DNA from: a virus
Taxonomy: Duplodnaviria > Heunggongvirae > Uroviricota > Caudoviricetes
Virus record (IMG/VR): IMGVR_UViG_2700989272_000006
Span: 1 to 19,695 of that record
Strand: one strand, 5' to 3'
DNA: 19,695 nucleotides
Part shown: piece after piece, positions 2,933 to 11,735 of the stretch
How positions within the stretch are numbered: the first letter of the stretch is position 1
How the letters are laid out: each line of letters starts with the position of its first letter
Translations under genes and position numbers: made by a program
The notes under the pieces: model-generated
Told to the model about the DNA's origin: nothing
What the model saw: the letters and a program-made list of their open reading frames with translations, nothing else
The model's database searches: none

Positions 2933-3985
2933 TTATTTCCCCACCAGCTCGTTTATCTCTTTCACTGTCTGGTTAAACCGCTCTGACTCAAGCTCAACAC
3001 CTAAGGCCCGACGCCCCAGCGCCATTGCTGCTTTTATTGTGGAACCGGATCCCATAAAAAAATCAGCAACCAGATCACCAGGTCGACTACTGGCATTGAT
3101 TATTTGCCTGAGCATATCCGCCGGTTTCTCACACGGATGTTTACCCGGGTAGAACTGAACGGGTTTATGCATCCAGACATCGGTATAAGGCACGGAGACT
3201 GATACGGAGAAATAGCGCCGGAGAGATTTAAACTCATCCAGCAATTCAGAATATTTGCGATTCAGTGAATCATAAGATGCCACCAGCTGGTGGTGTGGTT
3301 GTTCCAGTTGTTGTTCCTGAAACTTCTCTGCCGCTATACGGGAAAACAGTGCCTGTAACTTCCGATAGTCAGCCTCATTCGGCAACTGCCACTGACTGGC
3401 ACCAAACCAGTGGGAAACCATATTTTTCTTACCTGTGGCTTCGGCAATTTGTTTTGCCGTTATACCCAGTTCGGCACGAGCATCCCTGAAATACGATATC
3501 AGCGGTGCCATTATGTGCTGTTTGAGTTCCCTTTCTTTTGCCGCATAGCCGTCACTTTTGCCGCGATATGGCCCCTGGTAATGTTCAGCAAACAGAACGC
3601 GCTCTGTGGCAGGAAAATATGCGCGCAGACTTTCTTTATTACACCCATTCCAACGTCCGGACGGCTTCGCCCAGATGATATGGTTAAGCACGTTGAAACG
3701 TTCACGCATCATGATCTCAATATCAGATGCCAGGCGATGCCCACAGAACAGGTAAAGGCTTCCGGCAGGTTTTAACACCCGCCAGAACTGGGCCAGACAG
3801 TGGTCCAGCCACTTAAGGTAATCTTCGTCCCCTTTCCACTGATTGTCCCAGCCGTTGGGTTTCACCTTGAAGTACGGCGGATCGGTAACAATCAGGTCAA
3901 TGGAATCATCAGGCAGGGACTGAATAAAATGCAGGCAATCAGCGTTGATTAAATCAGCACTGTTTATTTTTACAGTATTTTTCAT
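2933..3985 (-). CDS. DNA methyltransferase, beta-class amino-MTase (N6-adenine or N4-cytosine)
   Basis: N-terminal catalytic motif IV (IVTDPPYF) and C-terminal AdoMet-binding motif I (DFFMGSGST) in the circularly permuted beta-class order; 350 aa; no cognate restriction enzyme recognised adjacent. Confidence 0.85.
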
Positions 3986-4135: not shown

Positions 4136-4339
4136 TTACTGGCAGCGTCTGAATTTATTCCCGTACCCGCCGTTATCCTTCGCCAGACCCGCCAGAACTA
4201 ACTGAGTCAGTATTAACTGGCACCGGGCTTCGCTTACTCCGGTAGTTCTCGTCATCATGCGTGGCGTTACCCACTTGTCAGCAGGTAAGAAATGAAGGAC
4301 TGCGGCGGCGGTTTCTGTCATATCTTGCTGTTTTAGCAT
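4136..4339 (-). CDS. Small putative winged-helix DNA-binding protein (67-75 aa)
   Basis: ORF 4136..4363; internal ATG at 4339 has an AAGGGA SD 7 nt upstream; sequence (TETAAAVLHFLPADKWVTPRMMTRTTGVSEARCQLILTQLVLAGLAKDNGG) has a wHTH-like pattern. Small size makes the call tentative. Confidence 0.4.
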   Translation of the reverse strand: MLKQQDMTETAAAVLHFLPADKWVTPRMMTRTTGVSEARCQLILTQLVLAGLAKDNGGYGNKFRRCQ

Positions 4340-4460
4340 GTCTTTTTCCCTTCTGGTTAACATGACATACCAATAACTCTTGTCTAAAAATCCAGCAAGA
4401 TAAAAAGTCAGTATTCACGACCACCAGCGTGTTTACTGTACTGCACCAAGTTTACAGGTA

Positions 4461-4487
4461 CAAAAAACCCGCTCAGTGGCGGGTTTA
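4461..4487 (-). terminator. Rho-independent terminator downstream of the 205-aa gene
   Basis: On the minus strand: stem acccgc / gcgggt with 6-nt loop followed by TTTTTTG; located 130 bp after the stop of the 4616..5233 gene. Confidence 0.6.
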
Positions 4488-4615
4488 AGTTGTGTGGCGA
4501 AGTAACCACTCTTAACACACTAATAGCATTTTTGTTATAACACAAGTAGCTCATTCAGTATTTTTAGAATCTTGACTTTCTTAAGCACGGCGAACTCTGA
4601 ATACCAAACATAAAA

Positions 4616-5233
4616 TCAATTATCTTCCAGGCCGGATGCTATCAACGAAAGCCTCTCAAAAAACGCTGTAGCAGCCTTGTCCAAAGTTGAATAAGTACTG
4701 TATTCTCCGTGTTCGGGACCAACCACTACCCATGGTCGTCTTTTTGGGATTCGGGACTTCTCAGAAATCACTGTTCCAGATATACCAATATCAATTGTTA
4801 CACCTGTTATTATTTTCTCTTCATCTCTTTCCCTGAACTCAATTGCCATAAATGCCGTTTTTTTTCGTTTCCCGTTTTTAAAAAAATCAAATAAAGCAAA
4901 GCGATGCTCATTAAAATCAACACCCCATCGTCCTTCAGGATAAAGGGCATGAAAGTTGTCATTTACGCTCTGCATCGTCTCATAAGCTTTAACTTCTAAA
5001 TCTCCATAGTGCATAGATACCGCGCAGGAGTCACTGGGTAACTGTATTTTCCCAAGATTGAAAACCTTTACTGCTCCAGAACTATGGCATCTTGCCCGCA
5101 ATTTATCCCCATTTATACTAATCGGAGAAATATTCCTTAATGTTCCGGGCTGGCTCCCTCCTAAGTAAACGACTGTTAAAGATTGCTTATTTTCAATTGC
5201 ATCAACTAATACATGCTCTACATTTTTATCCAT
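4616..5233 (-). CDS. Hypothetical protein (205 aa), AT-rich moron immediately downstream of Q
   Basis: ATG at 5233 with GGGAGG SD 5 nt upstream (the ORF-track start at 5260 is upstream of the SD). Lower GC than flanking phage genes; own terminator. No domain confidently recognised; the N-terminal 65 aa (LTVVYLGGSQPGTLRNISPISINGDKLRARC...VKVFNLGKIQL) weakly resemble a WYL/SH3-like beta-barrel pattern. Confidence 0.65.
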   Translation of the reverse strand: MDKNVEHVLVDAIENKQSLTVVYLGGSQPGTLRNISPISINGDKLRARCHSSGAVKVFNLGKIQLPSDSCAVSMHYGDLEVKAYETMQSVNDNFHALYPEGRWGVDFNEHRFALFDFFKNGKRKKTAFMAIEFRERDEEKIITGVTIDIGISGTVISEKSRIPKRRPWVVVGPEHGEYSTYSTLDKAATAFFERLSLIASGLEDN

Positions 5234-5260
5234 AATAACCTCCCGATGAACAGGTATCAT

Positions 5261-5330
5261 CAGGAGGTTATAATAAAATATGATTATTTACTTTGATTGA
5301 ATTTATTACTATATGTAACAATCAATTTCT
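5261..5330 (-). promoter_or_regulatory. Candidate late promoter (pR-prime-like) region overlapping the Q 3' end / Q-205aa intergenic spacer
   Basis: AT-rich stretch with sigma70-like hexamers (e.g. TTGATT ... TAATAAA) directly downstream of Q, where lambdoid phages place pR-prime and qut. Exact -35/-10 not resolved. Confidence 0.25.
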
Positions 5331-5680
5331 AAAGATACCCCCAACATTGCCAGACAACCGTCAATAAACCCTTCAGCTTTCTGCAGTCTGATAACAACCT
5401 GATTAAGTGATATCCCCAGTTTTACCCCCAACGCCCGTAATGTAACCCCATACACATAATACATTTCCAGTAATTCGTATTGATACGGTTCCTTTTTCTT
5501 AAGAACTGTCATTGCAGAGCTAATGATCAGGCCATCGTCATCGCTACATTGCGGGCGGGATTTTACTTTCGAAGGAATTAATCCCTTAAAACCTGCAGCA
5601 ACAGATGACCATTCCACATCCTCGTGATTATTTGCCACCCATGCCCCCCAACGTTCAAGAACCATTTGAATATCACGCAT
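5309..5680 (-). CDS. Q: Late-gene antiterminator Q (short QuuD / 933W-type)
   Basis: MRDIQMVLERWGAWVANNHEDVEWSSVAAGFKGLIPSKVKSRPQC... matches the N-terminus of short Q antiterminators as I recall them; first ATG at 5680 with GGAGAAA SD; positioned immediately upstream of the lysis region. Confidence 0.75.
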   Translation of the reverse strand: MRDIQMVLERWGAWVANNHEDVEWSSVAAGFKGLIPSKVKSRPQCSDDDGLIISSAMTVLKKKEPYQYELLEMYYVYGVTLRALGVKLGISLNQVVIRLQKAEGFIDGCLAMLGVSLEIDCYI

Positions 5681-5697
5681 CAACTTTCTCCACAAAA

Positions 5698-7913: not shown

Positions 7914-8236
7914 ACTTTCAGGCCCCTCTCATGTAACCAGTGGGCTGCACGCAACCTGGCGTTCTCCTCACCGGCAAGCAGTGCGCGGATGATACCGACC
8001 GCCTCGCTGTCGTCGTCCTTCACCGCGGTATGAAGCGTGATGCCCCGGGCCACGCCACGCTTTATCGTGATGACGCCTTTTTTCTCCAGTGCGCGAAGAT
8101 GCTCCACCGCTGCATTCACTGAACGGTATCCCAGCATGGTTGCCACCTCCTGATTGGTTGGCGGGAAGCCACGTTCTTTCTGATAAGAAATCAGCATATC
8201 CAGCACCTGCTGCTGGCATTGAGTTAACGTCGTCAT
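7910..8236 (-). CDS. LexA DNA-binding-domain-only protein (winged helix, no S24 peptidase domain)
   Basis: MTTLTQCQQQVLDMLISYQKERGFPPTNQEVATMLGYRSVNAAVEHLRALEKKGVITIKRGVARGITL is collinear with the LexA N-terminal domain (LTxRQxEV ... GxPPT ... EHLKALxxKGxI); only 108 aa, so the catalytic domain is absent. Confidence 0.75.
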   Translation of the reverse strand: MTTLTQCQQQVLDMLISYQKERGFPPTNQEVATMLGYRSVNAAVEHLRALEKKGVITIKRGVARGITLHTAVKDDDSEAVGIIRALLAGEENARLRAAHWLHERGLKV

Positions 8237-8886
8237 GCCGCCATCTCCCTGACCAGTTTTTCTGCCTGCTGGCGAACCTGCGCCAGAAAGGCCTCACCAC
8301 ATGCCTCAAGTTCATCGCGCCCGATGTAGCTGATTGCCGGTCCCTTCCAGGTCTTGTCGAAAACAGCAATAGCACCAGCGAAGAAAGCGCCTGTCGGCAC
8401 CTGCTTCTCATCCTTCGGGATAAACCAGGCAGGCAGTTCAAAACCAATACGCCCGCGAATAAAAGCAATATGATCTGCATCTTCCGGCCACCACACTTCG
8501 CTGGTGGCAGCTTTGATCAGGAAAACATAGCGCCCGCCTTTATCACGCATGGCACTGGCATGCTTCATGATGTAACGCATGCCGGTGATGTATTGCCCCT
8601 CATGCTGACTGGCGCGGCTGTATGGGGGATTACCAAAGGCAGCACCTTTAAGCTCCGCAAGGCGTTCTGACCAGTCATGCGCCAGCGCGTTGTCTTCCGC
8701 CGTGTAATACGCAGCACATTTGGCGTTATCACCGTCAGTGAACAGATCCAGAACAAACGGGCCAAACAGGGTGTTAATTCCCCAGAAAATGTTGTCCGGC
8801 GTGCGCCACTGATCGCCCACTTCCTTCAGTTCATGGGCTGGTTTGTTCCGCAGTTCCGCCAGCGCCTGGCAATATTTATTACTCAT
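8233..8886 (-). CDS. Phage Dam-type DNA N6-adenine methyltransferase
   Basis: NPPY catalytic motif (FGNPPYS) in a phage N-6-adenine-MTase-like context; ATG at 8886 in a TAATG overlap with the upstream gene; ATGA overlap with the downstream gene. Confidence 0.8.
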   Translation of the reverse strand: MSNKYCQALAELRNKPAHELKEVGDQWRTPDNIFWGINTLFGPFVLDLFTDGDNAKCAAYYTAEDNALAHDWSERLAELKGAAFGNPPYSRASQHEGQYITGMRYIMKHASAMRDKGGRYVFLIKAATSEVWWPEDADHIAFIRGRIGFELPAWFIPKDEKQVPTGAFFAGAIAVFDKTWKGPAISYIGRDELEACGEAFLAQVRQQAEKLVREMAA

Positions 8887-9380
8887 TAAGCCCCCACGTA
8901 ATTCCCTGAGAGATACCACTCTTCACCTGATGCAGCCCGCTTACTGCTTTTCCGTAAACACCGTTCACGACGCGCCAGAAAATTGTTTCGTTCTGGCTGG
9001 GAGTGGCTTTCACGGAATGCCGCCATCCACACCGTTGCAGCACGACGGTATAAGCCCCTCGACTCCAGTTCTTCAGCCTGGCGGGTCAGGCACAAAATCA
9101 CCCGGGGGTCGTTAGTGCCGACATAGAACTTGCGCACAGGTCTGGTTTCACGAACTGGTTGTGGTTCCGGCTCCTGCGCTCTCTCAGTCAGGCGCGAGAA
9201 ATGTCTGCGTGTATCTCCTTCACAACGGTGAGCCACACGCCCACTCTGACGTAACTTGCTTGCTGACTGCAGAACGCGCTGCCGTGAGTAACCTGCAAAA
9301 GCATCCGCAATGTCTCCGGAAGTACAGCCCGGATGGGCTTCAATGAATTTCTGAACTTCATTCAAAATACTCATGCTCAC
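8886..9380 (-). CDS. wHTH-PerC-like protein (C-terminal PerC-family motif)
   Basis: C-terminal segment AEELESRGLYRRAATVWMAAF...ARRERCLR resembles the PerC/Pch signature (LExxGLWRRAAxRW) as I remember it; N-terminal 90 aa look like a winged helix. Start GTG 9380 (GTGA overlap with O-like stop) or ATG 9374. Confidence 0.45.
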   Translation of the reverse strand: MSMSILNEVQKFIEAHPGCTSGDIADAFAGYSRQRVLQSASKLRQSGRVAHRCEGDTRRHFSRLTERAQEPEPQPVRETRPVRKFYVGTNDPRVILCLTRQAEELESRGLYRRAATVWMAAFRESHSQPERNNFLARRERCLRKSSKRAASGEEWYLSGNYVGA

Positions 9381-10369: not shown

Positions 10370-10590
10370 GCCGCACCTCCGAGATGCTTCATGTTTTTTC
10401 CGGAGCGAAAGGCTATAAGCGGCATACTGACGCGGTAATTACGGCCCAGCGGTTCACAAATCACCTTCTGACATTCACGGTCAACCAGGCTAACACGTAG
10501 AACATGCCCTGCAGGCGTGGTGTACCACTGACCGGGGCGAGGACAACGGAAAGTCTGATTGGTAAATCGTTTGAAAATATTCCGGATCAT
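10366..10590 (-). CDS. Hypothetical protein (74 aa), translationally coupled within the replication operon
   Basis: ATG at 10590 overlaps the Rha-gene TGA stop (ATGA), and its own stop overlaps the O-like ATG (ATGA); no recognisable domain. Confidence 0.5.
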   Translation of the reverse strand: MIRNIFKRFTNQTFRCPRPGQWYTTPAGHVLRVSLVDRECQKVICEPLGRNYRVSMPLIAFRSGKNMKHLGGAA

Positions 10591-11735
10591 TTGCGCCCCC
10601 TTACCTCTGAAGAGTTCAGCGACGAATGAATAAGACGGGCAAGAAATGCCGCATCGTTAATTCGGTCATACAGACTTACAGCCAGAGGTGATTCAGCTTT
10701 TTCCAGCATGGGATAAAGCTGCTGCAACCAGACCTGATGAATTGATGAAATGTAGGAATAGAGAACGCTGGCGTTATGTGCAACGTCGCTCGGTACAGCG
10801 GGCTTTGAAAGCTGTTTCTCCATCTGGTTAAAGGCATTGATGTATGCCTCTTTGAACTGGGCAGCACGTTTACCCGTGAAACCCATAGCAAGAAACGCAA
10901 AGCCGTCGCGGGTTATTTGATAGCAAGGTAGTTTGCGGCCTGTGCAATCGGTGTAATCACTCACCGAAAAATTGCGGGCAGTGAATGATGCGGAACATTC
11001 AAGCGTGCGGATCTTTTTCAGTACATCGTCATGACGTTTGGAGAAGAAGTTGGCAACAGCCAGGGATGAAGTAACAGCCTGACCATCAACGATGGCAATT
11101 TCAGGTTGAGTGAGGGTTGGGATCGTAGCCATGATGGCAGTCTCCGATAACAGTGAATTACCTTCACCACCGGAAACGCCAATTTCGCTGGTGGTGAACT
11201 GAACGGGGTTGGCGTAACCGGCGTTATCGGAAACCGGCGCACCTTTCGGTGCCCCCGTCCAGCCCACCATAATTTGGGTGTGCACAGACGCAGACGATAA
11301 AAAAGACGCTGGCGCGTCATATATCGCCGATAACATTTCCAGGACGCCAATCCCGACACCCGCTTTATAAGGTGCCTGAACAGTGTAACGTCCCGGAATG
11401 GCAGAATCAATGTGCTGGTGGTCCTTCACACTCAACAAAATCACGCCTGAATTTCCACAAAGGACTAAAGCACTCATGCGGGTAGTCTTTGCGAAGATAG
11501 ATAACGCGCTGTGTTTCTGGCTCCCAACGAATAACATGGACATAAAGCCCTCTTCCGTCACGAAACCAGCGGTTAAGTTCCTGCACAACTCGCCCCCCAC
11601 AGTCAGGTAAAGTTCTCTGTGGTTACTTACAGCCAGGTGATTTGGTAATCTGCATTCATGCCGTAACAACAGGTGTTCAGCGACGCTGACCACCAGCTGT
11701 TGCGACAAACGGTTATTTGCCGTTAAACTGTTCAT
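10587..11735 (-). CDS. Rha-domain phage regulatory protein with about 200-aa N-terminal extension of unknown function
   Basis: Residues about 205-300 (VTSSLAVANFFSKRHDDVLKKIRTLECS...YQITRDGFAFLAMGFTGKRAAQFKEAYINAF) match the Rha/ORF6-type pattern; ATG at 11735 with GGAGAAA SD and ATGA overlap with the upstream stop support the long form. The N-terminal half has atypical composition. Confidence 0.6.
   Translation of the reverse strand: MNSLTANNRLSQQLVVSVAEHLLLRHECRLPNHLAVSNHRELYLTVGGELCRNLTAGFVTEEGFMSMLFVGSQKHSALSIFAKTTRMSALVLCGNSGVILLSVKDHQHIDSAIPGRYTVQAPYKAGVGIGVLEMLSAIYDAPASFLSSASVHTQIMVGWTGAPKGAPVSDNAGYANPVQFTTSEIGVSGGEGNSLLSETAIMATIPTLTQPEIAIVDGQAVTSSLAVANFFSKRHDDVLKKIRTLECSASFTARNFSVSDYTDCTGRKLPCYQITRDGFAFLAMGFTGKRAAQFKEAYINAFNQMEKQLSKPAVPSDVAHNASVLYSYISSIHQVWLQQLYPMLEKAESPLAVSLYDRINDAAFLARLIHSSLNSSEVRGRK

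Follow-up and report, generated by a model that had tools for sequence, protein, structure and literature searches.

A lambdoid-prophage gene downstream of antiterminator Q encodes a WYL domain joined to an unclassified C-terminal domain

WYL domains are the single-stranded DNA (ssDNA)-sensing switch of transcription factors that control DNA-damage responses and anti-phage systems. The closest described proteins are CapW, BrxR, DriD and PafBC, regulators in which an N-terminal winged helix-turn-helix (HTH) and linker helices are combined with a WYL domain and a WCX domain, and which hold ssDNA in a fixed crevice. The stretch of viral DNA analyzed here (the window; 19,695 nucleotides, IMG/VR record IMGVR_UViG_2700989272_000006, Caudoviricetes) carries, directly downstream of the antiterminator gene Q, a gene for a 205-residue protein that keeps the WYL barrel of these regulators, whereas their winged HTH and linker helices are missing and the C-terminal domain is a different one. 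The gene and its product are called the WYL gene and the WYL protein hereafter. The WYL identity was already hinted at by RefSeq naming, while PHROGs holds the family as "unknown"; what is new is the architecture, which combines a known sensor domain with a second domain that is unclassified. If a widespread family retains this sensor and has exchanged both the DNA-binding and the WCX domain for others, it would use the same signal differently. By analogy with the known regulators, the gene may tentatively be regarded as lambdoid-prophage cargo for a small non-enzymatic two-domain ligand sensor with a role in phage-host or phage-phage conflict. An original prediction, made from the sequence alone, had described a 205-residue open reading frame (ORF) after Q with a strong GGGAGG Shine-Dalgarno (SD) sequence, and both were recovered, the latter at 5244-5239, 5 nt ahead of the ATG at 5233-5231; a further in-frame ATG upstream at 5260 would give 214 residues. 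The features of the gene, its product and Q are as follows.

4616-5233, minus strand: WYL gene, 205 residues, stop codon 4618-4616 (ORF, phrog_8498, ratio of nonsynonymous to synonymous substitution rates (dN/dS), family, AlphaFold2 model).
5039-5233, minus strand: WYL domain, residues 1-65, a helix (3-14) followed by a four-strand SH3-like barrel.
4979-5038, minus strand: inter-domain linker, residues 66-85 (predicted local distance difference test (pLDDT) 39-78, dN/dS 0.79, column table).
4619-4978, minus strand: C-terminal domain, residues 86-205, alpha-beta3-(variable acidic hairpin)-beta2-long alpha.
5309-5695, minus strand: antiterminator Q gene (PF06530, E 5e-48; phrog_79).

The AlphaFold2 model, for which a 134-sequence alignment served as input and which has a mean pLDDT of 86.2, consists of three parts, namely a helix with an SH3-like barrel (1-65), a low-confidence linker (66-85) and the C-terminal domain (86-205). 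Residues 1-65 are a WYL domain. They adopt the SH3/Sm-like barrel with preceding helix of the WYL fold (PF13280), and the barrel superposes on those of CapW and BrxR at 1.2-1.5 Å over 65-69 aligned columns in Foldseek. A search with the family profile retrieves DriD chains (E 9.5e-5) by way of the motif Y-x-GGS-x-PG-x-x-R-x-x-x-P, the spacing of which is identical to that of Y168...R178...P182 in DriD, and hhalign matches E. coli CapW with a probability of 94% (E 1.4e-7). These three comparisons bear out the weak resemblance of the N-terminal 65 residues to a WYL/SH3-like barrel that had originally been proposed. Pfam WYL is matched by 80 of the 134 family members at E<=0.1 (best 4.8e-8), and the matches in a BFVD fold search were limited to small uncharacterised WYL/SH3-like viral proteins.

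The residues of DriD that hydrogen-bond the phosphate backbone of ssDNA are Y168, S172 and R178 (PMC9186387), which correspond in the profile alignment to Y23, S27 and R33 of the WYL protein. CapW contacts ssDNA through four residues, R184 and R200 among them (PMC11662680), and for these two of the four the hhalign alignment provides conserved basic counterparts, R46 for R184 and K62 for R200. The ligand-contact residues of a WYL domain are thus present in the WYL protein, and a conserved basic and aromatic cluster of K44, R46, R48, K56, F58 and K62 lies at the CapW/DriD ligand-pocket positions. Because Y23, G26, R33 and K56 are invariant in the 134 sequences and G25, S27, G30, P37, A47, F58 and K62 are conserved in at least 90% of them, the ligand pocket is the most constrained part of the protein.

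The linker that follows is poorly conserved, of low model confidence and proline-rich across the family. The C-terminal domain is recognized by the motifs GW, FKNGKxxK and RxRPW together with A187 and F191. Its conserved residues in the 134 sequences (G102/W103, K119-N-G121, K125, R166-P167-W168, A187 and F191) are basic and aromatic; at a threshold of at least 90% just G, W, K, G, P, A and F are retained, and the 134-sequence column table holds no acidic or His residue at 90% conservation. The domain has no match in Pfam, NCBIfam or PADLOC scans. A profile of the domain alone found nothing significant among PDB sequences, the sole match being 1ylx at E 0.31 over two short co-linear segments, and a search with the domain alone in a 5.8-billion-protein set returned the same family and no other domain partners. 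It is therefore described as a conserved alpha/beta domain without a catalytic signature or detected known relative. Two candidate identities were discarded: a Pfam YutD-like match of one family member (E 0.005) was too weak and was not used, and a WCX domain was ruled out by topology (beta-alpha-beta-beta-alpha-beta-alpha in DriD versus alpha-beta3-[hairpin]-beta2-alpha) and by the lack of a profile alignment or detectable sequence similarity.

For the whole protein, Pfam, PHROGs, PADLOC and NCBIfam scans yielded a sub-threshold WYL match and two "unknown function" PHROGs. No HTH was found in Pfam, NCBIfam or PADLOC; the WYL domain begins at residue 3, and the hhalign match to CapW starts at CapW residue 135. 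In contrast to the fixed ssDNA crevice of the known regulators, the two domains are connected through a linker that is flexible and unconserved. The lack of an HTH, the different C-terminal domain and this linker thus rule out a function as a DNA-binding repressor or activator. WYL1, the accessory protein of Cas13d (PDB 6oaw), differs as well, since it has an N-terminal ribbon-helix-helix and a different C-terminal dimerisation domain and is CRISPR-linked, whereas no cas genes were found near the family members examined. Some relatives of the WYL protein carry transmembrane segments: P0127 and P0143 have one N-terminal transmembrane helix and a coiled coil, P0144 has two N-terminal transmembrane helices, and P0090 has C-terminal zinc ribbons and two transmembrane helices. 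These four independent fusions suggest that some relatives are membrane-anchored, and they resemble ligand-gated membrane effectors.

The WYL gene is a real, conserved prophage cargo gene. phrog_8498 ("unknown function") matches the protein over its full length (E 3e-126), and comparison with a variant of 72% protein identity gives a dN/dS of 0.21 at a dS of 0.84 (0.76 for the neighbouring Q), with values of 0.14 for the N-terminal domain, 0.79 for the linker and 0.20 for the C-terminal domain. An exhaustive HMMER search with a profile built from five sequences yielded 954 cluster50 representatives at E<=1e-3, and a stricter threshold of E<=1e-30 retains 191. Almost all representatives are 187-210 residues long and align over their full length. 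A 951-bp region with the gene was recovered, with a coverage of >=80%, from 51 of the 5,426 complete E. coli genomes searched (~1%), including that of the pathogenic strain S88; the E. coli copies are annotated as "hypothetical" or "WYL domain-containing protein", and Q adjoins every copy listed. Fifty-two IMG/VR viral contigs carry the gene, and the order DUF968 - Q - WYL gene - conserved block is found in all 49 of the E. coli-type prophage contigs among them. A tblastn search of phage GenBank entries gave just two matches, both distant (Pseudoalteromonas phage PY3 and Dolichospermum phage Dfl-JY45). Occasional decay of the gene is observed, with an IS1 element between Q and the gene in one viral contig (L038 4145-5000) and an IS5-family element (ISKpn26-like) inside the gene, truncating it, in another (L068 3490-5000); the copy in L067 is apparently frameshifted. 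The GC content of 39.6% is lower than that of the window (48.3%) and of the flanks beyond Q (50-57%), as had been claimed for the neighbours in general, although Q itself is likewise low (42.1%). Q, which is listed with a TTG start and has 123 residues in its RefSeq form, ends 75 nt from the WYL gene on its upstream side.

The contexts of distant homologues (30-37% identity), a small sample to which no statistical test was applied, comprise two defence islands, five prophage contexts of the immunity-region or Rha kind and four or more that are neutral. In a Leucothrix island, the homologue lies between AAA_15/21 ATPase, FRG, GmrSD_N and HEPN genes and, on the other side, a NERD nuclease gene; in a Bacteroidota island, it follows genes for an AAA_13/23 ATPase and an Mrr_cat-nSTAND3 protein. 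Like the wHTH-WYL-WCX regulators, some members of the family are found beside defence genes and in mobile elements. In three lineages (L012-L014, L019, L072), a Rha-family gene comes next on the downstream side of the homologue, and in L006 an integrase gene is nearby. The position directly downstream of the repressor is the classic one for lysogen-expressed exclusion genes, such as lambda rexAB, and in two distant phage lineages (L070/L071; L075-L077) a CI-like or HTH_3 repressor gene is followed directly by a homologue in the same orientation; the arrangement in the window differs, and the WYL protein is unrelated to RexA and RexB in sequence and structure. No conserved partner gene accompanies the family, and the protein would therefore act alone or with host factors. 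PADLOC-DB v2 contained no match to a described defence-system component, the returns being weak generic CRISPR-associated WYL models (E 0.0014 and 0.0066), and no known defence-system partner genes were present in this test. The original proposal of an anti-phage or lysogenic-conversion gene is plausible on the strength of these distant contexts, and not by the slot argument from which it had been drawn.

In the favoured explanation, the predicted ligand of the WYL protein, by analogy with DriD, CapW and PafBC, is a short single-stranded nucleic acid, and ssDNA is the likeliest kind. As the protein lacks DNA-binding and enzymatic domains, its output may come from ligand-dependent binding, oligomerisation or sequestration, and its role may lie in phage-host or phage-phage conflict. 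The family-level contexts and the transmembrane fusions slightly favour a protective role, as an exclusion or abortive-type sensor, over counter-defence. A more far-reaching version, possible but doubtful, is that the WYL protein is the E. coli representative of a large HTH-less family (~950 clusters at 50% identity) that constitutes a self-contained ssDNA-triggered conflict module, acting either as a one-gene exclusion or abortive sensor or as the first sponge for an ssDNA alarm, and that its locus marks a cargo hotspot between Q and the late promoter pR'. If this doubtful version were correct, the membrane-anchored relatives could be the explicit effector form, and a sponge could be aimed at the CapW/BrxR-type signal. 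Because it recurs in prophage immunity regions and defence islands, the family offers a candidate new defence or counter-defence protein that could be tested at low cost.

Several points weigh against the favoured explanation. The window protein alone scores 16.5 bits for Pfam WYL (E 0.0085), below the gathering threshold of 21.8, and WYL-domain ligands include more than ssDNA. Several homologues lie in unremarkable chromosomal neighbourhoods, and the other cargo genes of the interval between Q and pR' have no known defence annotation. The protein of the window is a soluble 205-residue form without a recognisable effector, which makes a one-gene defence mechanism hard to specify. In E. coli, the gene points in the same direction as Q and no separate promoter was detected for it, an arrangement that favours lytic-phase expression and is awkward for a lysogen-protecting role. 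Literature searches on WYL proteins that are encoded by phages or lack an HTH found nothing specific to this type.

A different explanation, which is unlikely, is that of a counter-defence decoy made with Q at induction, a sponge rather than a regulator, which would soak up the ssDNA fragments that derepress CapW or BrxR and so blunt the rise of CBASS, BREX and comparable systems. Its closest models are the phage signal sponges Tad1/Tad2, Acb2 and Acb4, to which the WYL protein is similar in being small, non-enzymatic, phage-borne and (as predicted here) ligand-binding. This similarity is one of mode of action and not of family, since the folds are unrelated and the ligands of the known sponges are cyclic or ADPR-derived messengers. 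The WYL protein shares its pocket residues with DriD and CapW but lacks an HTH, the gene position makes co-expression with Q likely, and tiny WYL/SH3-only proteins are encoded by many phages. CapW, moreover, is reported to respond to ssDNA 15-30 min into lambda induction and to reduce the virion yield ~100-fold thereafter (PMC11662680). However, stoichiometric sequestration would be demanding with ssDNA fragments as abundant as they are, and some homologues lie where host-protective genes are typically located, in chromosomal defence islands and behind prophage repressors. Unlike the known sponges, some WYL homologues are chromosomal or membrane-anchored, and transmembrane fusions do not fit a sponge.

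Still less probable is a regulator of the phage's own development, in which the WYL protein would sense ssDNA or DNA damage and tune the lysis-lysogeny decision or induction through contacts with other proteins, such as the repressor, antirepressors of the Rha/Ant type or the Q/pR' machinery. Such a role would agree with the function of DriD, PafBC and CapW as DNA-damage sensors and with the homologues beside Rha-like genes (three lineages) and CI-like repressor genes (two). It could also be read from the variant loci, in which DUF968 is 97% identical to that of the window, compared with 86-87% for Q, 72% for the WYL gene and 76% for the downstream block, and hence Q, the WYL gene and the promoter region travel, and diverge together, as one module. 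This co-divergence is, however, explained by plain linkage between two conserved recombination flanks; in addition, the family occurs outside phages, and sister prophages with related Q do without the WYL gene. In E. coli S88 (L001), what comes after the Q-WYL-pR' module is a set of an AraC-type HTH gene, three tRNA genes (Met, Arg, Arg) and a nanS-p-like SASA esterase gene (L001 7641-7890 and 5188-7149). The late region of S88 is Stx-phage-like but lacks stx, and the module therefore recombines with different late regions.

The favoured explanation, that of a conflict-related ligand sensor, also depends on when the gene is transcribed, for which the position of the late promoter is decisive. 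The features around the gene are as follows.

4517-4545, minus strand: candidate late promoter pR', TTGTGT (4545-4540), 17-nt spacer, TAGTGT (4522-4517).
4380-4516, minus strand: conserved late-transcript leader block (megablast, query 1-155; alignments).
4462-4483, minus strand: leader hairpin CCCGC-CACTGA-GCGGG followed by U6 (fold), at ~+28 to +49 of the predicted pR' transcript.
5235-5271, minus strand: SD hairpin, perfect 15 bp, arms 5271-5257 and 5249-5235, loop 5256-5250 (7 nt).
4136-4363, minus strand: first ORF after the leader, 75 residues (phrog_331, weak winged-helix-like matches).

In lambda and in Shiga toxin (Stx) phages, the pR'-tR' region gives rise to leader RNAs (lambda 6S RNA and StxS, respectively), and the locus of the window resembles it in having the same Q family (57-59% identity to Stx-phage Q; 57-66% when phage PhiR40_1 is included), a homologous leader block and a homologous hairpin. 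Alignments with these phages indicate that pR' probably lies downstream of the WYL gene. The segment 4380-4534 (the first 155 bases queried) is shared at 88-97% with ~1,350 further E. coli genomes that do not have the WYL gene. The Stx1-converting phage AP005153, which has a Q of 57% identity, carries no cargo; at its Q stop stands TTTACG-16 nt-TATCAT, followed by the block (TAAGAGTGGTTAC...AACCCGCC....GCGGGTTTTTTT). The 3' end of StxS RNA has been mapped 258 nt downstream of PR' in the Stx phages of strain Sakai (PMC7547250). Counting 258 nt back from the annotated terminator U-tract of AP005153 (~3217) leads to a point 6-7 nt past TATCAT, and TTTACG-16-TATCAT is therefore PR' of this phage. 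In PhiR40_1, TTTACA-16-TATGCT is found in the same register after its cargo, and both promoters stand directly ahead of the shared TAAGAGTGG core of the block. The candidate pR' of the window, in which TAGTGT is followed by G-TTAAGAGTGG, aligns in position with both and would start transcription at ~4511-4510 on the minus strand. Moreover, TTGTGTTATAACAAAAA is kept in the 72% variant loci despite diverged surroundings and differs in prophages with other Q types, the pattern expected of a promoter and Q-binding element specific to one Q type. The hexamers of the window, TTGTGT and TAGTGT, are weak by consensus, which counts against this placement, and their register is ambiguous, with an extended -10 element TGtTATAAC (4543-4534) as the alternative.

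By the same comparison, the WYL gene likely separates Q from its promoter by ~0.8 kb, and the interval between Q and pR' appears to be a variable cargo slot, which sister prophages fill with unrelated genes. In the interval from a related Q to the block, CFSAN027343 has genes for 308 and 182 residues on the opposite strand, SA186 has the same 308-residue cargo gene with an IS30-family element alongside, and LR-06 and phage PhiR40_1 have opposite-strand genes for 339 and 148 residues, respectively. The alternative cargo genes of the slot (L002, L003, L004, L074) have no Pfam, PADLOC or NCBIfam match. In two of these sister prophages, the Q stop is 12-14 bp from the cargo stop, and there is therefore no room for a promoter at that point. 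In Stx phages, stx and other late morons are located downstream of pR'/tR', whereas the WYL gene would be upstream of pR'; the slot would therefore differ from the stx slot, and constitutive transcription from pR' in the lysogen would miss the gene. This refines the reading of the "slot after Q", in that genes placed there would, unlike stx, be outside constitutive pR' transcription. If so, the WYL locus would mark a previously undescribed Q-pR' cargo hotspot in prophages with Stx-like Q.

The intergenic region between Q and the WYL gene has no convincing promoter on the coding strand, the sole match being a 9/12 site (5260-5232) that overlaps the start codon, and the 72% variant shows no conservation of this region as a promoter. 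The simplest account is that the WYL gene is probably co-transcribed with Q from pR in lytic development. Its mRNA would form the tail of the delayed-early operon, made during induction or infection and not from pR' in the lysogen. Translation may in addition be gated by the SD hairpin, in which the GGGAGG sequence (5244-5239) is buried (-26.1 kcal/mol, z -4.6, none of 200 shuffles as stable). The variant keeps the hairpin with three pairing-preserving changes and one mismatch, while ~50% of nearby synonymous sites are changed; this comparison, thin in comprising two sequence types, suggests such gating. The complement of the hairpin forms a strong sigma-70-like site on the plus strand (5247-5274, TGAACA-16-TATAAT, 10/12), antisense to Q, which would read back into Q and recalls lambda paQ; the form in the variant allele is weaker (TGAACG-16-TACTGT).

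These observations bear on the original prediction that the gene is a moron in an stx-type slot, with a constitutive pR' in the Q-ORF interval from which it would be transcribed in the uninduced lysogen as the leading late-operon gene, and with a terminator of its own to end the transcript. The gene does stand directly after Q, where pR' is located in lambda and Stx phages, and a terminator-like hairpin does follow it. That arrangement is nonetheless very improbable, given the lack of a credible coding-strand promoter ahead of the ORF, the opposite-strand cargo abutting the Q stop in the same interval of sister prophages, and the position of the Stx-phage-homologous pR'-leader block downstream of the ORF, which is anchored by the StxS mapping. 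The predicted terminator ~130 bp downstream exists as a hairpin and U-tract (stem 4483-4468, U6 4467-4462) that begins 133 nt past the WYL stop codon. It belongs, however, to the leader block found in the ~1,350 genomes without the gene and is therefore not the gene's own terminator. A simple terminator scan missed it, presumably since the stem can extend into the U-run. The variant keeps the stem with a different sequence (CCTGCC-gcct-GGCGGG), and a Stx-phage homologue is found at ~+27 to +50 of the PR' transcript (L073 2985-3010), which is evidently read through, since the reported end of StxS lies 258 nt from PR'. The hairpin of the window is probably intrinsic-terminator-like and partly efficient or leaky, or has another role in the leader.

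The other prediction for the protein, a PD-(D/E)xK-type nuclease effector fused to the WYL sensor, had as its sole basis the string D137/E138/E139/K140 and can be dismissed, as these residues lie in a variable, poorly conserved insert with a pLDDT below 60, the family consensus at 137-140 is T/S, Y/S, D/E and L/Y, and no nuclease family or fold was matched in sequence and fold searches.

Beyond the leader, the 75-residue ORF is followed by an N6/N4 DNA methyltransferase gene (2933-3985) and then by lysis genes. The prophage has two DNA methyltransferase genes, namely this N6_N4_Mtase gene (PF01555; minus strand) among the first late genes and a gene for a Dam-like phage N6-adenine methyltransferase in the nin-like region (8233-8919, minus strand). 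Rfam and tRNA scans gave no match at the WYL-gene locus. Elsewhere in the window, two Rfam matches at gathering level adjoin each other inside or beside a 382-residue ORF (10587-11735), a C4 antisense RNA (82.8 bits, 11187-11274, minus strand) and an isrK Hfq-binding RNA (61.5 bits, 11299-11375, minus strand).

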